A DNA stretch of 63,485 nucleotides, the filler included, from Octopus bimaculoides (Eukaryota), in the NCBI RefSeq assembly GCF_001194135.2. It is 8 parts of 8 records of this genome, joined end to end, with 100 filler letters (N's around TTAATTAATTAA, not from the genome) between each part and the next. Parts side by side here need not be neighbours in the genome. Positions count along the whole stretch, not along the records: positions 41,160 to 47,310 come from NC_068986.1; positions 47,411 to 58,389 come from NC_068984.1; 6 more parts are not named here. One strand, written 5' to 3'. Shown in pieces: positions 850-56,410 of the stretch (within the stretch, counting starts at the first letter, position 1; the number at the start of each line of letters is the position of its first letter). Below the pieces are notes generated by a model that worked only from the letters and a program-made list of their open reading frames with translations, did not search any database and was not told the origin of the DNA. The translations under genes were made by a program, and so were the position numbers.

Positions 850-2117
850 GCCATCTCGTAGATAATGTGGTTTTTTATATTTTTATTTTTCAAAATTAAG
901 ATGAACAGTTCTTTTTTAATCTAAAATATACTCTCCTTCATTTTCTACAATGCTCTTCCATCTATCTGGTAGACTTGCAAGGCCTCTCTTCCAAAATTCA
1001 CTTGTCCGTGACGAAAAGTACTCCTTCAATATTGTTCTTACCTCAATTCATATTTTTACCGTCCAAATGATTTTGAAGACTGCTGAATAAATGGTAATCA
1101 GATGAGGTAATGTCCGGCAAATATGGTGGGTACGGCATCGTTTCCCATTCAAACTGATCCAGCCATTAGAATGTCATCCTCGCTGTTTGTGGCCGAGCAT
1201 TATCATGATGGAAGAACATCTTTCGTCTTAAAACCAAAGATGGACGTTTTTCTTCTAGCGCTGACTTATGCCGCTCAAGCTGCTCGCAGTAGATCTCCTT
1301 TGTTATCGTTTTGTTTGGGTTTAAAAGTTCAAAGTGGACTAAATCTTTCATATCCCACCAAACAAAGAACAACGCCGTACGTGGGTGAAGACCTTCTTTA
1401 GCCCGGGGTGCCGATGTTTCTCATTTCCTTACCCACTGACTTCGGTGCTTCATATTTTTGTAGAGAACTCATTTCTCGTCATTAGTCACTATTCGGTCCA
1501 AAAACGGTTCATTTGTGAGACGTGACAGCAAAGAAGAGCACGCATTCACTCCCTTGCGCGCGGTTAGACCCGGAAAGTTTGTGAGGAACTCATTGACCCA
1601 ATTTACTGACTTTCCCGATAGCACGCAGGTGTCGATGAATGATTGAATGATCAAATCCAAGCTATTCCGCTAGTTCCTCAACAGTTACGATGGGATTTTG
1701 TTCCACCAGGGCTTGCAGGACATCTTCGCCGAGCTCTGTAGATATTCCAGGACGAGGCTCGTATTCTAGGCTGTAGTTTCCGGCTCGGAATTTCTGGAAC
1801 CACTGTTCACACTGGCTTACGCTTATTGTCCGACCCCCATATATTACATTAATATTCCTCGCACTTTCCGTTGCATTGTTGCCTTTATTGAACTCATAAA
1901 GCAAAATATGTCGAATATGCTCCTTTGTTACTTCCATTATAGTTTTGAAAAAAATAACTGTTAAAATCGAACTGCACTCTTCAAAAATTGCACTAAGAAT
2001 AAGCACAAGGTACATTTACTACTTGCTATTATATCAATTTGATGCAGGTAGTGTATTCCGTCCCCATCCGACTTTTCATGCAATTGAAAAAAACGCATTA
2101 TTTATGGGATGACCCAA
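846..2117 (-). mobile_element. full-length degenerate mariner transposon (1272 bp)
   Basis: 30-bp imperfect TIRs 846-875 / 2088-2117 (24/30) with TA on both sides; transposase from ATG at 1937 (MEVTKEHIRHILLYEF HTH, RIVTNDEK, HHDNARP, YPPYLPDITSSDYHLF) broken by stops and frameshifts. Confidence 0.92.
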
Positions 2118-2482
2118 TATATACATGTTATACAGGCTTGCCTAACCATTGTGTTACTAGAGCTACGAAACTCATTGTAGCTCGCATTTAAACATTGTGT
2201 ATATTGAATGATATTTATCTCTCACAGGATGGAGTTGATCCCACTAATAATGGAACAGTGCATATATACACATACATACATATATATAGACACCCCCACA
2301 CATATACATTATGTATGTATGTATCTATGCATGTATGTATGTATGTATGTATGTATGTATGTATGTATGTATGTATGTATGTATGTGTGTGTGTGTGCAT
2401 TAGAAAAGGTAATGCCAGATTTGAGACTCATGAAAGGAGCTTGTAATATTTATTTTCTTCAAATTTTATGTTTATAATGTGC

Positions 2483-2580
<98 letters not shown>

Positions 2581-2672
2581 TTAACAATACTCTAGTGTGT
2601 TAGTGTATGTGTGTGTGTGTGTGTGCGTTTAGGTTTAGAAATGCAAGCTAGAAGATTCCTCAAATTCTGTAA

Positions 2673-2870
2673 CCCTTTAAGCATTCAAATTACTCCGTCA
2701 AATGTAGTGCTTATTTATTGACATTGTTTTGAATTTATCACGTATTATCTTCGAAGCTTTGAGATTTTGATGATGCAATCTTTATTTTTAGAATGACATT
2801 GTAGGGTCGGTTTGAACATAAAACAGATAGAATATTTTGGCTTAACCCGGTCTGTTTAAACGTTAACAGG
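2673..2870. mobile_element. piggyBac-type MITE (degenerate)
   Basis: (g)TAA|CCCTTT...AACAGG|TTAA termini around ~200 bp of non-coding sequence. Confidence 0.5.
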
Positions 2871-4342
2871 TTAAAGTTCTCGTCCTGAAAAATCATCCAC
2901 ACCAGTTAGCAATTTATTGTAATAGTGTGGGAGATACATTGTTTATCTTTATAATCACAAATAGTGAGGTATATGAATATTTTCATAGAGACATTGCAAT
3001 AGTTTAACAAAACAAGTGAGCACATTTGGGAAAGAAGAAAAAGATCAGATATTTCACACGTTCATTTTTTCCTGTAGCGAAATGAGTTTTTGTGCAATGT
3101 CTAAGATAATTGTAACTGCACATGTGCACTAAGTAGTAATCTTTTTTGCAAATTGCTATGATCTACTGGGATTGGTGCTTACCTCGTGCCCATAGCAATA
3201 AAGAAATGCATAACATTTTCTCTCAGTGATGTTATAAAGTCGGTTAATCGCAGATCAGCCACGGCTGAACACGGCTGATCAGCCACGGCTGCTCAAAGGC
3301 GTTTCGCTAATGACTATTCTGTATTCCCGAATAAGGTAAAACGCAAGGGGGAGAAGACAGAAAAGGCACATATGAAGGGCTCTGATGAGTTAGTAACTAA
3401 TCTGAGAATTGAAAACATGTTTAAGAAAATGTAAGTTCTGTATATTTTATAGAAGTCACTAGATACTGTATTAAGTAATTTAAGGAACGAGAAAAATCTA
3501 GTGAAGATTCTTAATTCTGGTGGCTTAAAAAAAAAATAGATTGGCCATATTAGTGACGTATGTGAATTCCAGTAACTTTGGTTCTAATCAATTATATAAT
3601 TTCACGTACTTGGAAATCTTTATCATAATTACAGTTTCTTCATTATTGAGAAACCATCTGATAGCGTCCGCAATTTACAGTCGGAAACAGGAAATGATCA
3701 TTAAAGCCGAGTAGCAAAAACTCATTGTTGCCATTTCGATGCCCTTACAACGAGTTAATGTCATCACAGGAAATAAGTGTGACACTTGGTAATTAAATGT
3801 TTCGACCTTATACTCACTACTGAAGGAGTTTCTTCTCTCTAACTCAAGGCTCTGAGGAAAACAAAACTAAAGGAACATTTATTAGTCATTATGTTTCCCC
3901 ATTGCTTTCTTGCAAGCATTGTAGAGGAATCCAGGAATCGGATTTTGCGATGTGATTTCCATTCTCCACTGAGCTATTTCAGTTCCCTTGCTTCTTTGTG
4001 CATTCCTATTTTCCAGGTGAATTTTATATTGAAAGCGGATTGGGTCCTCCTACATTAGTACTCAGTCAGTATGAAAACGAACCTTTTGACGGAGACCATG
4101 TGATTCAGTGAGGATTATATAATGTTTACAAAATTCAGTTCTCACAGCATTAAGTCTATATTTATATCCAGGTAAACAGAACGAGAGAGAAGATTGGTCA
4201 AAGCCATGGAACACATGGTAGTGCTCGTAAGGGAGGTATTCGAACTGTTGATTTTTTCTTTGATATATTTGTTGCTCTATCGATTCAGCTACGTTATTTA
4301 CTTATTTAAATGAACCTTTACTTTGTTTATTCCTATTTACAG

Positions 4343-10510: not shown

Positions 10511-10915
10511 ATCCAAAATTAAACAATGGAGTAGATAAAATCCAGACAACGTATGTTTCATAGCTAGCAGGACCTCGGAAATAGGAACTGCCCAAACGAG
10601 GGATAATTCCCTAGCTACTCGTCGGGCCAAAGATACCTTAATTAGATGAAGTTTTCATTGTCGATCGTCACGGGATCTCATGTTGACTCGCAGGAGATCC
10701 AATCGTTAAGGTGTGTAAAGCATTCGATTGGATCTCTTGCGAGTGAACGTGGGATCCGTTGACGATAATGTAAACTTCATTTCATTAAGGTACCTTTGGC
10801 CCAACGTGTAGCTAGCGGATTACCCCTCGTTTGAGCAATTACTACTTCTGAGGTTCTGCTAGCTATGAAACATATGTATCCTGGATTTTATCTACTCCAT
10901 TACCTCATTTTGGAT
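10511..10915. repeat. ~405-bp imperfect palindrome (Penelope pLTR-like) carrying a hammerhead-like motif
   Basis: arms 10511-10705 and 10725-10915 roughly 80% complementary by eye, 19-nt loop. Confidence 0.9.
10545..10628 (-). ncRNA. candidate type-I hammerhead variant (CCGACGA core)
   Basis: minus strand: GGC-CCGACGA-GTAGCTAG...CTAGCTAT-GAAAC-ATAC-GTT-GTC; stem I only 3 bp. Confidence 0.5.
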
Positions 10916-20124: not shown

Positions 20125-20405
20125 GCAACATCAGCAAAAAAGAAATACCTTAGGAATGAGAACGTAGGGTTGAGTCAAAATTCTACCAGGACACCTGATG
20201 AAGGCTGGAGAATAAATCAGCCGAAACGTTGTGGTAACATCAAACAAGATGAGTACATATCCGTCCAATGTAAATAATGTAAATAAGTATTTGACTGGTA
20301 CTTTATTTTATCAACCCTGAATGGATAGGAGGTATATACGAACACGGTGTAATTTGAACTCAGAAGACGGACGCTAAGCGTTTTGCCATGATTGCTACTG
20401 GAGGC
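19985..20405 (-). mobile_element. SINE family A (tail variant 2) split by a pLTR-like insert at 20071-20285
   Basis: ...atcgacacca (20070) resumes as agtatttgactggtac (20286). Confidence 0.7.
20192..20233 (+). ncRNA. minimal type-I hammerhead ribozyme (Penelope pLTR type)
   Basis: CAC-CTGATGA-A-GGCTG...CAGCC-GAA-ACGT-T-GTG: canonical core, loopless palindromic stem III, 3-bp stem I. Confidence 0.65.
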
Positions 20406-20419
20406 ATAAAAAAAAAAAA

Positions 20420-20612
20420 TCTTTCTATTAAAGGCACAAGGTCTGAAACTTGGGGGAGGGGCATAGTGGAATACAACGACCGCAGTACTCAACTGGTATC
20501 TATTTTATCGAGTCCGGAAGGATGAAAGGCAAAGTCGACCTCGACGGAATTTCAACTCAGAACGTAAAGATGGCGGACGAAATACCGCTAAGTATTTTGC
20601 CACGCTTGCTAA
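20420..20612 (-). mobile_element. SINE family A (tail variant 1)
   Basis: core, partial head and ctttctattaaaggcacaaggtct tail. Confidence 0.8.
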
Positions 20613-38013: not shown

Positions 38014-39952
38014 TACAAAGGTAAAGGTGACGTTTTAGATACAAATAATTACAGAGGTATCAAACTGTTAGGTCAGTTAATGAAAGTCACGGAGAGGGTC
38101 ATAGCCCAGCTACTTAGGGAGCGAATCAATTTAGATGAGATGTAGTTTGGGTTCATGCCTGGGAAAAGCACCACTGATGCTATATTTCTGGTAAGACAGC
38201 TTCAGGAGAAATACCTAGCCAAGGATAAACCTCTGTACCTGGCTTTCGTTGACATGGAGAAAGCCTTTGACAGGGTCCCCCAATCCCTCAACTCATGGTC
38301 AATGAGGAAACTAGGGATAGAAGAATGGTTAGTGAGAGCTGTGCGAGCCATGTACAGAGATGCTGTCAGTAAGGTGAGGGCTGGCAATGAGTACAGTGAA
38401 GAATTCCGGGTAGAAGTAGGGGTCCACCAAGGTTCTGTCCTCAGCCCCCTCCTATTTATCATAGTCCTCCAGGCTATAACAGGAATTCAAGACAGGATGC
38501 CCCTGGGAGNNNNNNNNNNNNNNNNNNNNNNNNNNNNNNNNNNNNNNNNNNNNNNNNNNNNNNNNNNNNNNNNNNNNNNNNNNNNNNNNNNNNNNNNNNN
38601 NNNNNNNNNNNNNNNNNNNNNNNNNNNNNNNNNNNNNNNNNNNNNNNNNNNNNNNNNNNNNNNNNNNNNNNNNNNNNNNNNNNNNNNNNNNNNNNNNNNN
38701 NNNNNNNNNNNNNNNNNNNNNNNNNNNGTAGGTAGAAACTTTATAAGATGCACCCAGTGCAAACTATGGACACATAAGAGGTGCAGCAATATCAAAGGAA
38801 GGTTAACTAGGAAGTTAGTTTTTGTATGCAGCAGATGTTCAGGAGCTATAAACACTGTAAATGTGCAGAAAACAACTTCTGCCACATTCCTGTGAGAAAA
38901 ACTAGATGTAGTTGATAGCTTCTGCTATCTCGGTGACCAAGTTAGTAGTGGGGGAGAGTGCACTGAAAGTGTAGCTGCTAGAATAAGAATAGCCTGGGCA
39001 AAGTTCAGAGAGCTCTTACCTCTGCTGGTGACAAAGGGTCTCTCTCTCAGAGTAAAAGGCAGACTGTATGATGCATGTGTACGAACAGTCATGCTTCATG
39101 GCAGTGAAACATGGGCCGTGACTGCTGAAGATTTGCGTAGGCTCGCAAGGAATGAAGCCAGTATGCTCCGATGGATGTGTAATGTCAGTCTGCATACTAG
39201 ACAGAGTTGAACCTAAGAAGCATCAGTTGTGGTGTGCAAGAGAGACGATTGCGCTGGTATGGTCATGTGGCGAGAATGGATGAGGATAACTGTGTGAAAA
39301 AGTGCCACATCCTAGCATTTGAGGGAAACTGTAGAAGTAGGCCCAAGAAGACCTGGCATGAGGTGGTGAAGCACGACCTTCAAACATTGGGCCTCACCGA
39401 GGCGATGACTTCTTAGCGAGACCTTTGGAAACATGCTGTGCGTGAGAAGATCTGGCAAGCCAAGTGAGACCTAAATCCAAGGCCTCTGCCAGGGGTGTAG
39501 CCAGCCTACTTATAAGTACCTTTCCTTCATTGGACATTAAACTCTGCTAGCAAAGACCTGTTGAGGCATGTGAAATCGAAATCGAACTAAATTCGATGAC
39601 TGGCACCCATGCCAACATCGTCTCTTGCATTGGACACGAAACTCAGCTTGGGAAGACCTGTTGGGGCAAGCGAAAGCGAAATCGTGATGGCACCTGTGCC
39701 CAGCGTCGCCTTCCTGCAACTTGTGCCGGTGGCACGTGTAAAGGCATTCGAGCGAGATCGTTGCCAGTGCCGCCGGACTGGCTCCTGTGCAGGTGACACG
39801 TAAAAGCACCCACTACACTCTCAGAGTGGTAGGAAGGGCATCCAGCTGTAGAAACTCTGCCAAATCAGATTGGAGCCTGGTGTAGCCATCTGGTTCACCA
39901 GTCCTCAGTCAAATCGTCCAACCCATGCTAGCATGGAAAGCGGACGTTAAAC
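38014..39952 (+). mobile_element. RTE-clade LINE (RT, PHD-like insert, C-terminus, long 3' UTR)
   Basis: YKGKGD..NYRGIKLL, FGFMPGKSTTDAIF, AFVDMEKAFDRVP, GVHQGSVLSPLLF, RLRWYGHV; ends gcatggaaagcggacgttaaac. Confidence 0.92.
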
Positions 39953-41211: not shown

Positions 41212-42635
41212 TATATATAAATTTTACAGAAAAAAGTTTCGATGTTTGTCGAGCAACACATGGTGCCCATGTTGAGTGCATACTATCTTAAAACAAACTT
41301 TAAACCTTCTCCTATCTAGAAATATGTAGAATGTGTTTGTGTCTCTTACCGTTTCGTTTTAAAAGTAAATTTAAAATCTGCTCTTTCTTTTTGAATAACC
41401 CTGTTTATAGACATAGGTTTATGCTCATGCCATGTGTTTGTATATATTTTATATTATAATTAAAGAAAGAGACTTTGAGTAGTCTGGTGCAGTGCTATTA
41501 ACTATCTTACCAGTTCAGTTGATCCGTGGTAGAAGAGAGAGTTATTGTCTGTATTGTCAAGTCAATACCAATTAACGTCGTTCTAGATGCGATCTAGGAT
41601 GTTTCCTTGTTTAGCAGCTGCCTGCACCATGTATGCGAACTGCACATTAATTTAGGTGTTACTTTCGCACGGAAGAACGTCATTAACTGATTAGAAACTG
41701 AACTATTTTCTAAATCCGATAACAAAACATTTTGTCTTCCATTTTGTGTTAGTTTTTGTAGTTTTTATTTTTTATTCATTTTACACCGCATACAGTTTGG
41801 GGATTCGAAAAGTTGTTATGATTGCAAAAATGGTTTGGTTGGTGGCAGTATGGACGGTGAAGGAAAAACAAGCTAGGCTGCAGGCCAAGAGGTAGCATCA
41901 ATCGCTCCGTGCTGCTGCAAAGAGCAACACTATCAAAAGCTGCTGAAAGTGGTGTCATTTCCAATTGACAGAGGAATTAATCCGTGGTGCAAGCTGTATG
42001 CAAAATACACAAGGCATTTTAGGTAATTCTTTTCTTTTTAGTACTAAGTTTAATCTTTTACGTTATGTTTATGCAATATACATTGATGTGTGGAGTGTTG
42101 AAGTTGTTTAAATGTAATCTATGCGTTATATATTGTTTAAATGTAATCTATGGTACTTATATAGTATTATTTAGTCATTCGTAAGACGACAGGGAAAATT
42201 TTCATGGACGTTTGGCTACAATTTCTAGTCGATTAACCGACCAAGTAAATATTTGTTCGACGGATGAATGGATGGGAAGATGTTTAGAATATCGATTCCA
42301 TTGAGTTATTTAGTGTATCAAATGGCTTCAGACCACACATACTATCTAACTAGATGGTTTCCTGTTCATTTTACAATGAAATATAGTCCCGTTCCTATTC
42401 TCGGGAGGAGTTAACAACTCACGTGGTGGGAGAAAATGCGACGAAGAATAATGACGTAACAGTATTTTACCATGGGAGATTATTCTTTTATTCATCAATT
42501 AGTTGCAGTCATTAGACTGTGACCATATTGAATCAAGAGCAAAAGTTAAGTCGATCAGATTGACCTCATGATTTATTTCAGTCCGGTACTACTTATCTAC
42601 GTATCCTATCGACTTTTAGCTGTCAGACGGCAATA

Positions 42636-42670
<35 letters not shown>

Positions 42671-42774
42671 NNNNNNNNNNCTATAAATATATGCATATAT
42701 GCATATATTTATAGAAATGGTAAGATAACAAAAGAATGAAAGAGCCCTCGATACTATGTAAATAGAGGAATTTA

Positions 42775-42952
42775 TCAGTAAATATATGTGACAATTATTC
42801 GGTAGCCATGATAAAACTCTGAGTTTCGAATTTTCATAGCATTTGTTTGATGGCCCGATAACTGAAGAGATGCCGGCGTGGGTTTCCGCCTCGACATCCG
42901 AAACTCGGAGTTTTATCATGGCTACCGAATAATTGTCACATATATTTACAGA
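42775..42952. repeat. 178-bp inverted-repeat element (57-bp arms, 3 mismatches) flanked by TA and containing a hammerhead
   Basis: arms 42775-42831 and 42896-42952. Confidence 0.9.
42857..42917 (+). ncRNA. type-I hammerhead ribozyme, canonical core
   Basis: GATAA-CTGAAGA-GATG..GGCG..CGCC..CATCC-GAAAC-TCGGA-GTT-TTATC; 5-bp stem I, ACTC(G)GAGT stem III. Confidence 0.7.
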
Positions 42953-42969
42953 TATATATATATAGCTTC

Positions 42970-43201
42970 TTATTTTTTTATTGCCCACAAGGGGCTACAC
43001 ACAGAGGGGACAAACAAGGACAGAGAAATAGATTAAGTCGATTACATCGACCTCAGTGTGTAACTGGTACTTATTTAATCGACCCCTAAAGGATGAAAGG
43101 CAAAGTCGACCTCAGCGGCATTTGAACTCAGAACGTAGCGGCAGACAAAATACCGCTAGGCATTTCGCCCGACGTGCTAACGTTTCTGCTAGCTCGCCGC
43201 C
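42970..43201 (-). mobile_element. SINE family A with Tx1-like tail (variant 3)
   Basis: complete head and core; tail tctgtccttgtttgtcccctctgtgtgtagccccttgtgggcaataaa. Confidence 0.88.
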
Positions 43202-43897
43202 TTTTTTTTTCTTCTTTTTCTTCCTCTTTCTATTCTTTTTTTTTTCCGACTAAAATCTTTCAAGGCAGAGACAGCACCCCAGCATGGCCGCAGTCTAAAC
43301 ACTGAAATGAGAAATAGATTAAAAAAAAAAAATTTAGTTATCTTTACAGCGTATGTAGTACGCTTAATCCGAAACTGCAAAATCTTGAAAAAAAACAAAA
43401 AAAACAGAAAGAAAAAGAAATCTCGATATTTCCTCCATTCCAATGAAATAATGTAAAGTGATGCATAGAAAGAATTGCATGAATTTAGTTGTAATACTTT
43501 CTGTAGTCGCTACATCAGTCGTTCTCTGCAAACGCCAGTGTTTGTAAAACAGGGTTAAACAAATAAAAGGTTCGCTTTTGAACTTCAATTATCAAAATAG
43601 TTTTTGTCGTTACAAGACACATAATATAAACTAGTATATTTTAACAACTCGACCTACTAGCTTTAATGACATTATTACCCAAGATACATGCATACATACA
43701 TATATATATATATATAATCATAAATATACAGGGATTAGCAGGAGCTGCTTCTCCAACATACTGAGAATTCAGAAATAGCAGTCAAAGAACTACTGATTCC
43801 AAATTACAAATTTATTCTCTAACGGATGGCGATATTTATGGCACACACAGAACAAAAAAACAGAAGAGAAGAGTAAAAACAAACCTGCCTTTAGTTA

Positions 43898-43961
43898 ATT
43901 GGGTACGACGTTTCACGGTTAAGGGTATGAAGTTACCCTTTTCCGATCTTCAGCTTCAATA
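43898..43961 (-). ncRNA. type-I hammerhead-like motif in a pLTR-like repeat
   Basis: ATTGAAG-CTGAAGA-TCGG..AAGGGTA/TACCCTT..CCGT-GAAAC-GTC-GTA-CCCAAT; stem I imperfect. Confidence 0.55.
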
Positions 43962-44699
43962 TTCGAATAAATTTGCAAGTGTCTAATAACTCATGTGAAT
44001 TTTGACCATGCGACATCAAGACCACGTGAGGCAGACACTNNNNNNNNNNNNNNNNNNNNNNNNNNNNNNNNNNNNNNNNNNNNNNNNNNNNNNNNNNNNN
44101 NNNNNNNNNNNNNNNNNNNNNNNNNNNNNNNNNNNNNNNNNNNNNNNNNNNNNNNNNNNNNNNNNNNNNNNNNNNNNNNNNNNNNNNNNNNNNNNNNNNN
44201 NNNNNNNNNNNNNNNNNNNNNNNNNNNNNNNNNNNNNNNNNNNNNNNNNNNNNNNNNNNNNNNNNNNNNNNNNNNNNNNNNNNNNNNNNNNNNNNNNNNN
44301 NNNNNNNNNNNNNNNNNNNNNNNNNNNNTATAGAAAAAAGTCCCGTATGAAGGGTTGCGGTTTAACCATCCAACTTAGAGGCATCACTATAAAATATAGA
44401 TATATAGGGCAGGGAATCGTCAATTAGTAATAAAATTAATAATTAACAATTTTGCCGAGTAGCTCAGAAAGAAGCACACGCTAAAAGTTAGAGCAGTAAT
44501 TAATTATATGGCCGATTATAGTGATCAATGGCTTCGCATCCATAATATATATACACACCTACCTATGTACACTTCAACCATGCGGTTATGCACAATGTCT
44601 ATCAATGTATTTATCTATATAAAGTGTATTCTACGGAGCTCTTCGTCCCTTTGGTTCACTTATGTAACTTTACAGTGCAGGTGTGACGTATGAGATAGA

Positions 44700-44896
44700 C
44701 AGGAAGAAAATTTTGGGGAAGGGGACCAGTCGATTAGATCGACCCTAATACGCAACTGGTACTTAATTTATCGACCCCGAAAGGATAAAAGGCAGAGTCG
44801 ACCTCGGCGGAATTTGAACTCAGAACGTCAAGACAGACGAAACACCGCTCAGCATTTCGTCCGGCGAGCTAACATTTCTACCAGCTACTCGCCGCC
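44700..44896 (-). mobile_element. SINE family A
   Basis: head and core intact. Confidence 0.85.
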
Positions 44897-45253
44897 ATTG
44901 TAGGGAATGTTATTCTGCAATCACTTGCTGCTGGGTTCGTTTGCAGAGCTGTGGAAGTCTCGCGTTGACCAACATCTTCTAACAGAACATAGCATACAGA
45001 AAAGCCCATTGTATATCGAAGAATAATATTCTAAGTAGATCCGTTGATCCGACTTCGCTTTTCCTCAATTAAAATTATATGTCGTTGCTATTATGCAAAA
45101 GTGTCGTAAGTCCAAAACGTTGCTGTTTTTTTTTTTAGAAAACGAAAAAATAGTTTCACCATTCCATTTCTTTTTATATTAGCAACAGTATAGCACATAT
45201 AGCTCCTTACCACACAGCCACACCTGTCCCCACACAAAAGCAATTCGTCTTGC

Positions 45254-45325
45254 CTTCCGGGCGGGGAATCAGATCTCAGTCTCCCGCATGATAGGTGCGG
45301 ATACTTACCACTATACTACCGAGGA
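45254..45325 (-). pseudogene. tRNA-Asp-derived pseudogene
   Basis: TCCTCGGTAGTATAGTGGTAAGTATCCGCACCTATCATGCGGGAGACTGAGATCTGATTCCCCGCCCGGAAG aligns to tRNA-Asp(GTC); anticodon reads ATC, B box broken. Confidence 0.8.
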
Positions 45326-45334
45326 CTATACATA

Positions 45335-45735
45335 TATATGTTTCTATTCTTTTACTTGTTTGACTGCAGCCATGCTGGATCTCCACCTTGAAAGGTTTTA
45401 GTCGAACAAATCGACTACAGGACTTATTTTTAAAGCCAAGTACTTATTCTATCGGTCACTTTTGCCGAAGTTATGCAGATGTAAACACATTAATACCGGT
45501 TGTCGAGTGGTGATGAGGTAACAAACACACACCCAAAGACATACACACATAGAAATATGTATAGACACACACACACACATATGTGACGGGCTTCTTTCAA
45601 TTTCCGTCCACCAAGTCCACCCACAAGGCTTTGGTTGACCCGAGGCCATAGTGGAAAACACTTGCCCAAGGTGCTACGCAGTGGGACTGAACCTGAAGCC
45701 ATGTAATTGGGAAGCAAGCTTCTTACCATAAAGCC
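45335..45735 (-). mobile_element. CORE-SINE family B, near full length
   Basis: reverse complement of the 49762-50147 copy, including the internal microsatellite. Confidence 0.85.
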
Positions 45736-46691
45736 AGGCTTGCACCTATATATATATATATATNNNNNNNNNNNNNNNNNNNNNNNNNNNNNNNNNNNNN
45801 NNNNNNNNNNNNNNNNNNNNNNNNNNNNNNNNNNNNNNNNNNNNNNNNNNNNNNNNNNNNNNNNNNNNNNNNNNNNNNNNNNNNNNNNNNNNNNNNNNNN
45901 NNNNNNNNNNNNNNNNNNNNNNNNNNNNNNNNNNNNNNNNNNNNNNNNNNNNNNNNNNNNNNNNNNNNNNNNNNNNNNNNNNNNNNNNNNNNNNNNNNNN
46001 NNNNNNNNNNNNNNNNNNNNNNNNNNNNNNNNNNNNNNNNNNNNNNNNNNNNNNNNNNNNNNNNNNNNNNNNNNNNNNNNNNNNNNNNNNNNNNNNNNNN
46101 NNNNNNNNNNNNNNNNNNNNNNNNNNNNNNNNNNNNNNNNNNNNNNNNNNNNNNNNNNNNNNNNNNNNNNNNNNNNNNNNNNNNNNNNNNNNNNNNNNNN
46201 NNNNNNNNNNNNNNNNNNNNNNNNNNNNNNNNNNNNNNNNNNNNNNNNNNNNNNNNNNNNNNNNNNNNNNNNNNNNNNNNNNNNNNNNNNNNNNNNNNNN
46301 NNNNNNNNNNNNNNNNNNNNNNNNNNNNNNNNNNNNNNNNNNNNNNNNNNNNNNNNNNNNNACATAGACAGAGAAAGAGAGTGGAAGAGAGCTTGTGAAG
46401 AATAGGAAAGGAATTACTAAAAAACAGATGGTGGGTTTGTATGAGAAAAATTATCTGCAGGCGAGTCAATTCCCAAGGCCGATTCAATAACCAGGAGTTG
46501 TAAATTTATTTTCGAAAATAGAGAAAATATGTTAAGCTACACGTGATTGCTTCACAATTTCCTTTGACCACAACTAAATATTTTAAGTTGTCATTGCTGT
46601 TTAGCCCAAGGTCAGTAGCTTTTATTGAACGGACTCATTATAGTCGTTAATGCTATGACCATCTCGTTGTTTGCATGTGTGTGTGTGTGTA

Positions 46692-47185
46692 TAGTGTTTA
46701 TCGCTACTTTAACGTGCTTATTCTGTAAGAACCGACGATACTACTATTTTAATTACAGGAACACATCCCTTTCAGCTGGTTTATTCAGTGCGCCCTCGGT
46801 CTTGATATTCATTGCAAGCGGGAAAGAACTCCTACCACCAGATCACGTGATTTCAATCTTATTGGATGACTTCAGCAGTGAGGCGTGTTACTGGTCTGGC
46901 TTCGCTTACAATATACAGAAAATAGTGTCATACAATCACTGATTTTCTAACTAGCAAACTAGACCGTTAGAAAATCTCTGTTCAAGATAGAAGTAATATA
47001 CGAAGCAAAACGTAGTGTTTATCGCCACTTTAACGTGGCTGTTCTCTAAGAGCCGATGATACTGCTATTTTAACTGCAGGAAGACATCTATTTAGTGCGC
47101 TCTCGCACTCGATATTAATTGCAAGCGGGAGAGAACTCCTGCCAATCTTGCTCCGAGACCACCGAATCATGTGATTTCGATCTTG
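46692..47185 (+). repeat. diverged ~170-bp direct repeat (46692-46860 and 47013-47185)
   Basis: tagtgtttatcgc(t/c)actttaacgtg...attgcaagcggga(a/g)agaactcct in both units. Confidence 0.8.
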
Positions 47186-47205
47186 TATCATTTGAGCGCT
47201 GGGCT

Positions 47206-47252
<47 letters not shown>

Positions 47253-47274
47253 ACGCACGCACACACACACACAA

Positions 47275-47310
<36 letters not shown>

Positions 47311-47423
47311 NNNNNNNNNNNNNNNNNNNNNNNNNNNNNNNNNNNNNNNNNNNNTTAATTAATTAANNNNNNNNNNNNNNNNNNNNNNNNNNNNNNNNNN
47401 NNNNNNNNNNAATTATCACAGAG

Positions 47424-47461
47424 CTGCTACTCAGAGTTTCACGTTCCCGTTCGTCGGACAG
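47424..47461 (-). ncRNA. minimal hammerhead variant (CCGACGA core), mirror copy
   Basis: CTGT-CCGACGA-ACG-GGAA-CGT-GAAAC-TCTGA-GTA-GCAG. Confidence 0.6.
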
Positions 47462-47495
47462 TTGTGATAAATGCTGAATTCAGGATTTATTACAA

Positions 47496-47533
47496 CTGTC
47501 CGACGAATGGGAACGTGAAACTCTGAGTAACAG
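47496..47533 (+). ncRNA. minimal hammerhead variant (CCGACGA core)
   Basis: CTGT-CCGACGA-ATG-GGAA-CGT-GAAAC-TCTGA-GTA-ACAG. Confidence 0.6.
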
Positions 47534-47644
47534 CTCTGTGATAATTAAGCAGCTTTTAAAAAAATGTATATTACTCTGCCTTTGGTATTCGAGTACTATT
47601 TTTTACACTTTGTCTTGCACTTATGTGCTCATCTGTACGTAGGA

Positions 47645-47675
<31 letters not shown>

Positions 47676-47689
47676 GTGTGTGAGTTCGT

Positions 47690-47895
47690 CCACCACCTCT
47701 TGACAACTGGAGCTGGTATGTAATCTAGCGGTTCGACTAAAGAGTCTGATTAAAAAAAGTATCAGGCTTAGAAAGAAATAATAACAAGCTCTGAGGTTGA
47801 TTCGTTCGACTAAAAAACAAAACAAAAACACCTTCAAGGTGGTGCTCCAGCATGGCTCCAGTCTAATGAACGAAACAAGCAAAAGAATAAAAGAG
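47690..47895 (+). mobile_element. CORE-SINE family B, 3' half
   Basis: ggtggtgctccagcatggc...gaaacaagcaaaagaataaaagag tail. Confidence 0.7.
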
Positions 47896-47927
47896 AAATT
47901 TGCAGTAGGATTAGTAGCAGCAGCAGC

Positions 47928-47959
<32 letters not shown>

Positions 47960-48296
47960 CGACGACGACAACAAGGTTGTAAATGGCAAAATAATTCTAT
48001 CTTTGTGTGTATCAGAAATAGTCCCGTTTAGGAAAGAGACTCGTACGAATTCCTGCGGTATAACCATCCACCGTGGAGTTATTATTAAAATATAGATATG
48101 CAGGGCAGGGAATCATCAATTAGTAATAAAATTAATAATTAACAATTTCTGATACACACTGAATTGAAATTCATTAGGGCGAGAGATTTTGAACTTACTG
48201 GCCGATAAATTTCTTAACGTCTTCTTCACGTGGTATTGATGTTCACATGGTCAAAATTAACGTGAGTTATTTAGACATTAACAAATTTATTAGAAT

Positions 48297-48358
48297 ATTT
48301 GGCTGAAGATCAGAATAGAGTATTATGTACTCTTAACTGTGAAACAATTGTACTAAAT
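48297..48358 (+). ncRNA. type-I hammerhead ribozyme, pLTR type
   Basis: ATTTGG-CTGAAGA-TCAG..AGAGTA/TACTCT..CTGT-GAAAC-AATT-GTA-CTAAAT; 6-bp stem I, palindromic ACAATTGT stem III. Confidence 0.75.
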
Positions 48359-49295
48359 TAACNNNNNNNNNNNNNNNNNNNNNNNNNNNNNNNNNNNNNN
48401 NNNNNNNNNNNNNNNNNNNNNNNNNNNNNNNNNNNNNNNNNNNNNNNNNNNNNNNNNNNNNNNNNNNNNNNNNNNNNNNNNNNNNNNNNNNNNNNNNNNN
48501 NNNNNNNNNNNNNNNNNNNNNNNNNNNNNNNNNNNNNNNNNNNNNNNNNNNNNNNNNNNNNNNNNNNNNNNNNNNNNNNNNNNNNNNNNNNNNNNNNNNN
48601 NNNNNNNNNNNNNNNNNNNNNNNNNNNNNNNNNNNNNNNNNNNNNNNNNNNNNNNNNNNNNNNNNNNNNNNNNNNNNNNNNNNNNNNNNNNNNNNNNNNN
48701 NNNNNNNNNNNNNNNNNNNNNNNNNNNNNNNNNNNNNNNNNNNNNNNNNNNNNNNNNNNNNNNNNNNNNNNNNNNNNNNNNNNNNNNNNNNNNNNNNNNN
48801 NNNNNNNNNNNNNNNNNNNNNNNNNNNNNNNNNNNNNNNNNNNNNNNNNNNNNNNNNNNNNNNNNNNNNNNNNNNNNNNNNNNNNNNNNNNNNNNNNNNN
48901 NNNNNNNNNNNNNNNNNNNNNNNNNNNNNNNNNNNNNNNNNNNNNNNNNNNNNNNNNNNNNNNNNNNNNNNNNNNNNNNNNNNNNNNNNNNNNNNNNNNN
49001 NNNNNNNNNNNNNNNNNNNNNNNNNNNNNNNNNNNNNNNNNNNNNNNNNNNNTGATTAGGTCCCCCTAACTTAGTGATTTGGCAAAAGGAACTGATAGAA
49101 TAAGTACTAGGCTTAGAAGGAATAAATATATATATATATATCATCATCATCATCACCACCACGACCACCATCACCATCATCATTATCATCATCATATAAC
49201 GTCCGTTTTCTATGCTGGCAGGGGTTGCACCATTCCCTCTCACCCATACAATGGAAAGTGGATGTCAAAATGAGGATGGTGTATATATATATAGG

Positions 49296-56380: not shown

Positions 56381-56383
<3 letters not shown>

Positions 56384-56410
56384 ATGATCGCTTTCGTGAA
56401 ACACCGAGTA
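56381..56410 (+). ncRNA. hammerhead core remnant
   Basis: CTGATGA-TCG-CTTT-CGT-GAAAC-ACCGA-GTA; stem I replaced by (CTGT)n. Confidence 0.4.

Follow-up and report, generated by a model that had tools for sequence, protein, structure and literature searches.

Two homologous type I hammerhead motifs with a U·U mismatch in a high-copy repeat of Octopus bimaculoides

Known PLE hammerheads and the two octopus copies

Penelope-like elements (PLEs) are retrotransposons that combine a telomerase-like reverse transcriptase with a GIY-YIG endonuclease, and a pseudo-LTR or partial tandem arrangement and a tail of 30-40 nt are also among their features. Hammerheads associated with PLEs have been described from many animals. 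In the Hydra clade, which the passages of PMC8557442 used here define by a reverse transcriptase with RWK and DKT, an endonuclease without CCHH and a CxCX5C linker, the hammerhead follows the ORF and sits close to the 3' end, and inverted 5'-truncated copies are described in the same passages as typical of PLEs. One such element, Hydra-1_Obim, comes from Octopus bimaculoides itself (PMC8557442). PLE hammerheads are most often met as solo, 5'-truncated and opposite-strand copies (PMC4209133), and an Anolis PLE could insert in vitro even without its hammerhead (PMC11167929). The axolotl retrozyme motif HHR_Amex2 (about 60,000 motifs) has a U·U mismatch at positions 10.1 and 11.1 yet cleaves, 22% as a monomer and more as a dimer (PMC7229834), and the part of Perreault et al. 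2011 consulted reports natural U10.1-U11.1 hammerheads, with this the best tolerated mispair there (PMC3088659).

Two motifs of this kind, copies A and B, were found in the window (the whole stretch of O. bimaculoides DNA analysed, 63,485 nucleotides with filler):

48297 to 48358, plus strand: copy B type I hammerhead motif, with a 6-bp stem I, core CTGAAGA, U10.1·U11.1, two-part stem II and palindromic stem III ACAATTGT
43898 to 43961, minus strand: copy A type I hammerhead motif, with core CTGAAGA from 43953, U·U, stem III ACGTCGT and a weak stem I

Copy B has every feature of a type I hammerhead, namely the CUGANGA, GAAA and UH cores, three stems, all of them intact, and an open stem I. In this copy 48297-48302 pairs with 48353-48358 over 6 bp with a single G·U (48301·48354), C3 is 48303, U10.1 is 48310, and U11.1 is 48340, followed by GAAA. 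Its stem II consists of CAG/CTG (3 bp), a 3x3 internal loop AAT/TAA and AGAGTA/TACTCT (6 bp). Copy A (C3, 43953; U10.1, 43946; U11.1, 43915) has the type I core and a broken stem I of one G-C pair, a 2x1 loop and 4 bp; its stem II comprises 3 bp (CGG/CCG), a 2x2 loop and 7 bp that include AGGGTA/TACCCT, and its stem III is an odd palindrome. Cleavage is predicted after A43904 (N17) in copy A and after 48352 in copy B (N17, A48352), and the latter agrees with the site proposed in the first-pass annotation. Calculated energies for stem III are -6.4 kcal/mol as a self-duplex vs +2.4 as a monomer hairpin in copy B and -4.7 vs +3.7 in copy A, and the hammerhead folds lie 4.6 (B) and 6.9 kcal/mol (A) above the respective minimum-energy folds.

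Hydra-clade PLE hammerheads (PMC8557442; e.g., Hydra-1_aJap, Hydra-2_aJap, Hydra-1_cRog and Penelope-1 to -9_HM) resemble copies A and B in their type I topology, in a U after A9 that faces a U before GAAA, in a palindromic stem III (of odd length in 19 of the 25 families by our count on File S2), in having GUA among the cleavage triplets, in a short stem I and in inverted 5' copies. They differ in stem II, which is long and in two parts in A and B (3 bp, internal loop, 6-7 bp) and a plain stem of 3-5 bp in the tabulated U·U Hydra members, none of which has the internal loop. The published Hydra-1_Obim hammerhead has a different sequence and lacks U·U, and Hydra-clade PLEs include an ORF, whereas A and B are known here without a linked one. 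The minimal hammerheads of metazoan PLE pseudo-LTRs (Cervera and de la Pena 2014, PMC4209133) share with A and B a long helix II, a short helix I, a palindromic helix III suited to dimers (unstable in A and B by the energies above) and occurrence mostly as solo copies with some opposite-strand pairs. Their consensus has an extra base after A9 and then G10.1-C11.1, in contrast to U·U in A and B; Hydra-type rows depart from it likewise, and the Hydra magnipapillata example (Fig. S3 of PMC4209133) reads U...U, as in our copies. HHR_Amex2 (Cervera and de la Pena 2020, PMC7229834) is likewise type I, with U·U at the base of helix II and a very high copy number, and a further likeness is its 2-bp helix III with a tetraloop and better cleavage as a dimer; unlike A and B, for which no tandem was seen, it lies in 350-bp tandem repeats, with circular RNA and loop 1-loop 2 contacts.

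The first-pass annotation had singled out U·U in place of the usual G-C. The mismatch is indeed present in both copies, but it is neither new nor unusual among Hydra-clade PLE hammerheads, where it occurs in 14 of 25 families (our count on File S2, PMC8557442), which makes the A/B pair an ordinary new case; no remark on the mismatch appears in the passages of Craig et al. 2021 drawn on here (PMC8557442). The reading of this U as the usual extra base after A9 was rejected, as a second U stands before GAAA and C-G is the pair that follows. The one feature of A and B that looks unusual is their two-part stem II. Neither this family nor a two-part stem II with U·U is described in the portions of the PLE hammerhead literature that we consulted. 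Lunse et al. 2017 reportedly deal with PLE hammerhead variants and may cover two-part stem II forms.

A high-copy repeat and the layout of its copies

Sequence alignment confirmed copies A and B as homologous hammerhead motifs, as the first-pass annotation had claimed: 43894-44036 aligns with 48362-48219 at about 79.5% identity over 146 nt (E 6e-27), and 44331-44452 with 48029-48148 at 82% over 122 nt (E 4e-29). Both copies belong to a high-copy dispersed repeat. In two DNA runs, 1253 and 1402 contigs align to 373 bases of it, with single contigs at a depth of 890-4146 beside others at 23-59, and the contigs show varied loose ends, a dispersed high-copy character like that of PLE minimal hammerheads. 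The variant table holds 26 rows with a share of at least 3%, three of them within 48297-48358 and none in the core, stem II or stem III. One of the three, at 48301, replaces the G·U of stem I by A-U and accounts for 416012 of 418887 summed depth in X1, copy B thus carrying the minority G·U; the remaining two sit in loop 2. The stem II letters of copy A are absent from the table, probably because contigs were clipped. In X1 the depth climbs toward the hammerhead, from about 1.2e5 (48055-48080) to 4.3e5 (48302-48314), although summed depth is a poor measure. Contigs over the hammerhead also occur in two runs guessed to be RNA, which has no bearing on expression either way. Viral contigs gave five loci with a loose pattern, none with hammerhead stems or flank, and no match to the flank pattern; two pattern scans of metagenome contigs gave 0 and 0 matches, and prokaryote genomes gave 0.

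The segments that make up the two copies are as follows:

43887 to 44039, minus strand: hammerhead-bearing segment of copy A; family contigs match at least to 43887
44329 to 44467, minus strand: likely upstream part of copy A, beyond a 289-N gap (44040-44328)
48145 to 48362, plus strand: hammerhead-sense segment of copy B and likely 3' UTR, followed directly by 690 N of assembly gap (48363-49052)
48005 to 48148, plus strand: inverted 5' segment of copy B, which on the minus strand equals the sequence preceding 48145 in other copies

In the contigs the block at 44331-44452 is read on the opposite strand and leads from there into the hammerhead segment, and 44453-44467 agrees at 15 of 15 positions with the family continuation past that block. 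This opposite-strand continuity suggests that copy A is likely a single colinear minus-strand copy and copy B a rearranged, 5'-inverted one, in which 48005-48148 runs opposite to the orientation that contigs of all four runs (4/4) show, and 48005-48022 repeats 48142-48159 in inverted form (17 of 18 bases alike). The related plus-strand block noted in the first pass is real, but the statement that it faces away from copy A is unsupported, and the block as a separate divergent copy was rejected. The gap in copy A is given as 289 N vs about 80 bases expected from colinearity. Hydra-clade PLEs are characterized by insertion into (TA)n. A (TA)n run at 43700-43716 lies 187 nt 3' of the copy A cut site, and the 3' end of this copy may lie near it; the 5' flank of copy B is not (TA)n, and its 3' side falls in the assembly gap.

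Element class and predicted activity

None of 146 translated stretches (six near the copies and 140 of the 249 filtered frames) matched a PLE reverse transcriptase or GIY-YIG domain in Pfam, and no host gene was identified near the copies; the one reverse transcriptase match in the window, at 38146, is RTE-like by eye. A scan of the window for 10 short Hydra-type protein motifs gave low-complexity matches only. Read in six frames, the two copies and the region upstream of A showed no clear GIY-YIG end and no ORF nearby. With no such reverse transcriptase or endonuclease found in the window, membership in the clade is unproven. A flank motif of the family has 0 matches in File S2 of PMC8557442, no tRNA was found in the window, and the best 150 of 201 Rfam matches across it comprise nothing but miRNA and snoRNA matches driven by microsatellites. 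Where the contigs run loose past 48148, one frame resembles the Hydra-1_Amil C terminus over about 7 residues by eye, a likeness too weak to use.

A and B are type I hammerhead motifs in two diverged members of a dispersed high-copy repeat. We consider it likely that these members are 5'-truncated 3' ends of a Hydra-clade PLE or of a non-coding derivative, with a ribozyme predicted to be weak alone and better as a dimer. The parent element would have been copied by its own or a helper reverse transcriptase and GIY-YIG nuclease, starting just 3' of the hammerhead; most copies would have stopped early, and copy B would have acquired, on insertion, an inverted 5' piece that overlaps by 16-18 nt. 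The monomer hairpin being unstable, cleavage is predicted to proceed through a helix III formed between two copies (8 bp in B, 6 bp in A), and the U·U likely lowers activity without abolishing it.

It is possible, though in our judgment unlikely, that the family is instead a stand-alone, non-coding retrozyme-like element, whose short one-hammerhead units would be transcribed in tandem, cut to monomers, circularized and reinserted by a borrowed reverse transcriptase. The high copy number and the lack of an ORF near either copy fit such an element, and the axolotl (PMC7229834) provides a U·U retrozyme family, so the mismatch is not diagnostic. No head-to-tail copy occurs, however, in the window or among the six listed contig joints, although the 690-N gap after copy B could hide a tandem; the depth rise toward the hammerhead is what 5' truncation would give, poor measure as summed depth is; and a stem II of this length is closer to PLE motifs than to the canonical type I helix II of 4 bp (PMC4209133). 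A preprint argues that animal retrozymes derive from PLEs (10.64898/2026.07.22.740005), so the two explanations shade into each other. A bolder proposal, which we hold to be doubtful, is that the copies represent an undescribed, very abundant Hydra-type PLE lineage in which U·U is a selected brake, released when copies pair or an element protein binds, and the conserved stem II loop is a docking or protein-binding site.

Covariation, chance and the meaning of the mismatch

The first-pass annotation also described coordinated stem II differences around an unchanged core, and both descriptions hold. The A-U pair 48312-48338 of copy B corresponds to G-C at 43944-43917 in copy A, and A-U at 48319-48331 to G-C at 43937-43924, while 15 core bases are unchanged, which is expected with a probability of 0.04-0.13 at such divergence. 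The tenth stem II pair is A-U in copy A and U·U in copy B (48316·48334), leaving one change uncompensated. Covariation had further been called the strongest evidence of selected RNA structure in the window; the differences do respect the stem, but this ranking is overstated, because there are two events (P 0.001-0.027 by simulation, with the structure read from the same two copies) and the structure was chosen after viewing both copies. We therefore regard the covariation between A and B as suggestive only of RNA structure. We think it likely that the compensatory changes date from two parent subfamilies in which the ribozyme was selected, and that stem I of copy A has decayed since then; the selection that shaped the stems was most probably exerted on the parent retroelement lineages and not at the A and B loci.

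A relaxed hammerhead descriptor found five motifs in the window vs a shuffle mean of 0.12 (0 of 200 shuffles reach five), and a strict one found two vs 0.02 (1 of 200 reaches two), each demanding three unbroken stem I pairs, which copy A lacks. Folding z-scores of the two motifs (-1.27 and -0.75) are unremarkable. Rfam hammerhead models gave no match to either copy at an E of at most 10 in 42600-48400, which says only that the curated models miss this hammerhead shape; U·U with a palindromic stem III is usable as a tag for Hydra-type remnants that such models miss.

Template-switch repair of hairpins can yield paired changes. That the pairs in stem II reflect chance, or correction of a quasi-palindrome at the DNA level, instead of selection on an RNA fold would agree with such repair, with the small number of compensatory events (two, upper P 0.027, one further pair broken) and with the weak z-scores. 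We nevertheless find it very unlikely, given the full core, cleavage triplet and three stems, the relaxed descriptor counts above shuffles, stem III letters that differ (AATT vs GTC) and are palindromic in both copies, a family variant at 48301 that improves stem I, and an anatomy that matches published PLE hammerheads position by position (PMC8557442). That the host keeps the A and B loci as regulatory ribozymes, e.g., in an intron or long RNA, is most improbable despite the three intact stems of copy B, as these are two among very many copies, carry the minority G·U at 48301 (B) and a weakened stem I (A) as drifting copies do, and have no identified host gene nearby.

On the best reading little is at stake, as PLE hammerheads number in the thousands in animal genomes and the U·U form has already been tabulated for the Hydra clade (PMC8557442) and assayed in axolotl (PMC7229834). 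Natural variants of the A/B family could be used to probe the role of PLE hammerheads (slow, dimeric, protein assisted and, in one in vitro system, dispensable).

A third motif was said in the first pass to share the U·U:

56381 to 56410, plus strand: decayed hammerhead of another family, with U·U, a short stem II and no stem I

The mismatch is there, but the motif was rejected as an A/B family member, its downstream flank being homologous to a motif at 47500, which has A-U at that position, and not to the A/B pair. Together with the natural A-U, G·U and G-C forms of the 10.1-11.1 pair and a U4C core also present in the window, these motifs could offer a ready series for asking why PLEs keep slow ribozymes.

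The hammerhead pair and its covariation

The hammerhead observation is real and goes beyond chance. Both motifs of the first-pass annotation were found where it had placed them, and their anatomy reads as follows:

48297-48358, plus strand: copy B; 6-bp stem I; core CTGAAGA from 48303; U48310 opposite U48340; stem II CAG/CTG, 3x3 internal loop, AGAGTA/TACTCT, then GAAA; stem III ACAATTGT; A17 at 48352
43898-43961, minus strand: copy A; core from 43953; U43946 opposite U43915; stem II CGG/CCG plus AGGGTA/TACCCT; stem III ACGTCGT; A17 at 43904

The reported U·U mismatch at 10.1-11.1, the base of stem II, is thus present in both copies. Scanning the window with a relaxed descriptor gave five motifs, whereas 200 local dinucleotide shuffles averaged 0.12 and never reached five; with a strict descriptor there were two motifs against an average of 0.02, and one shuffle of the 200 reached two. 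Neither descriptor can count copy A, because its stem I consists of a single G-C pair, a 2x1 loop and four further pairs.

Copies A and B are 79.5% alike over a 146-nt alignment (E 6e-27), in line with the alignable flanks claimed earlier. A block at 44331-44452 is 82% like 48029-48148 near copy B (E 4e-29). Two stem II pairs are A-U in B and G-C in A, so the compensatory changes proposed earlier do exist, but they are not the strongest evidence of selected structure. In simulations of neutral change (at 20% or at the rate of the flanks, 10/79 columns; 50-80% transitions), at least two such changes arose with P 0.001-0.027, scored on a structure read from the copies themselves, and the 15-base core stayed unchanged with P 0.13 or 0.035. 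Since there are only two events on a self-derived structure, a tenth pair is U·U in B and A-U in A, the core values are as above, folding z-scores are weak (-1.27 and -0.75 for the two copies), the hammerhead folds lie 4.6 (B) and 6.9 (A) kcal/mol above the minimum-energy fold, and an Rfam search gave no hammerhead match on either copy, the covariation is suggestive support for a selected RNA structure, and the case leans more on the full anatomy.

Layout and the repeat family in public contigs

The stretch, whole or in part, occurs in 20 listed public runs (one organism, eight studies). Contigs from four of 24 listed runs (X1, X4, X5 and X17) were compared with 47990-48362 at 80% likeness, and 1253 and 1402 contigs of two DNA runs match these 373 bases. 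Single contigs reach depths of 890-4146 alongside others at 23-59; a copy number of hundreds to thousands is a fair inference, summed depth itself being no copy number.

Beyond 48148, 30 X1 and 29 X5 contigs continue with sequence other than that of copy B, and the first 15 bases of this continuation match 44453-44467 exactly. Among the joints listed for X4 and X17, at least four connect 48145-48160 with the opposite strand of 48005-48030, and loose ends of X1 and X5 contigs agree with this joint (22/23 and 19/19 matches). Together, these continuations and joints indicate, among the contig pieces listed, a common form in which the block is on the other strand than in B and runs on into the segment with the hammerhead. 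This is the layout of copy A, and the earlier view that the block faces away from the minus copy is not supported. Copy A is thus likely to be one minus-strand copy running from about 44467 through a gap to at least 43887, and copy B is likely to be the odd arrangement, with its 5' part inverted. The edges of B repeat 16-18 nt (48005-48022 and 48142-48159). The size of the gap speaks against this reading: it holds 289 N, where a colinear copy A would need about 80 bases.

Three of the 26 variant rows fall inside the hammerhead, the other 23 upstream of it. The three are a nearly universal 48301 G>A, which turns the stem I wobble of copy B into A-U, and two changes in loop 2. A-type stem letters are absent from the variant table. 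Loose contig ends at 48299, 48311 and 48345, the last matching copy A at 22/23, suggest that contigs with A-type stems were clipped. Summed depth at 48094-48145 reaches 3-4 times the level seen elsewhere in the repeat, and X1 contigs enter (TA)n before 48090 (26) and before 48102 (22); the excess may reflect either a more abundant subfamily ending there without the hammerhead or subfamilies with internal TA expansion.

Comparison with published hammerheads and possible origin

According to Cervera and de la Pena (2014, PMC4209133), hammerheads of Penelope-like elements (PLEs) combine a long helix II with a short helix I and a palindromic helix III, and are mostly solo, weak and dimeric. In the Hydra-clade table of Craig et al. 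2021 (PMC8557442), counted without eight Chlamys/PLE-X rows and one repeated row, 14 of 25 families have U·U at 10.1-11.1, two of them with identical sequence, and 19 of 25 have an odd-length stem III. The natural U10.1-U11.1 has been cited as the best tolerated mispair (Perreault 2011, PMC3088659), and the axolotl is reported to carry about 60,000 U·U motifs, with 22% cleaved in one hour as a monomer and more as a dimer (Cervera and de la Pena 2020, PMC7229834). The A/B hammerheads are therefore ordinary, a new example of an established type with an already known U·U. The internal loop in their long stem II is the sole trait not found among the tabulated U·U hammerheads, and they are unlike the hammerhead that Craig et al. 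list for Hydra-1_Obim from Octopus bimaculoides.

Copies A and B are most likely what remains of the 3' end of a Hydra-type PLE or a non-coding derivative of one. Frame reading near the copies and domain and motif scans in the window found no linked reverse transcriptase or endonuclease; clade membership is putative, and the motif is predicted to work like a Hydra-clade PLE hammerhead. Copying of the element would have started 3' of the hammerhead and left 5'-truncated copies, with B inverted during insertion; inverted 5'-truncated copies are called typical (PMC8557442). The ribozyme was probably under selection in the parent lineages, copy A probably decaying later. Cleavage is predicted to be dimeric or protein-assisted. 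The computed stem III hairpin is unstable (+2.4 kcal/mol in B, +3.7 in A) and the stem III self-duplex stable (-6.4 and -4.7 kcal/mol); a protein-assisted hammerhead is described for an Anolis PLE, where it is unnecessary for in vitro insertion (PMC11167929).

Other hammerhead-like motifs and genomic setting

The motif at 56381 does have the U·U attributed to it, but it is without stem I and belongs to a separate family: its downstream flank aligns not with A/B but with that of the motif at 47500 (69% over 108 nt, E 6e-5), which has A-U at 10.1-11.1. Because 56381 represents a second family, U·U recurs across families in the window, as it does in the published Hydra-clade table (PMC8557442).

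Further motifs were observed. A near-perfect inverted repeat (47411-47546, 94%) carries two outward-facing hammerheads, 47500 (plus) and 47457 (minus), with core CCGACGA (U4C), A10.1-U11.1, a short stem II, stem III ACTCTGAGT and a 4-bp stem I. In viroids, U4C is a natural variant with slower activity, as cited in PMC3088659. A further inverted repeat (10511-10915, 81%) holds 10625 (minus), in which the core is again CCGACGA, G10.1·U11.1 is present and stem II is very long; this is a second family with U4C, apparently unrelated to the first. The hammerhead 42862 (plus), in an inverted repeat at 42770-42957 (73%), has the look of a Hydra-type one: its stem I is 5 bp long, its stem III is ACTCGGAGT, and GAAA is preceded by an extra C. 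At 20190-20240, directly after an (AAT)n run, lies a classic minimal PLE hammerhead, 20195 (plus), with an extra A after A9, G10.1-C11.1 and GAAACGTT. The first of two direct duplicates (46692-46881 and 47013-47190, 77% over 146 nt) ends in a decayed minus-strand hammerhead-like motif with palindromic ATCACGTGAT (Rfam HH9, 17.5 bits, E 1.7).

The window is AT-rich DNA of animal type, with many microsatellites, 36 N-gaps and two coding remnants:

1169-2015, minus strand: mariner-type transposase remnant (HTH_48 and Transposase_1)
38146-39416: LINE reverse transcriptase, RTE-like by eye, interrupted by stops and an N-gap (Pfam RVT_1, E 1.4e-14)

Paired 44-N runs 12 bases apart occur six times, as at 47355-47366, where the 12-base TTAATTAATTAA between them is likely an assembly linker and not biology. 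SINE-like repeats occur in several copies (44750-44880, 45350-45740, 43030-43180 and 20280-20600) and resemble octopus SINEs.
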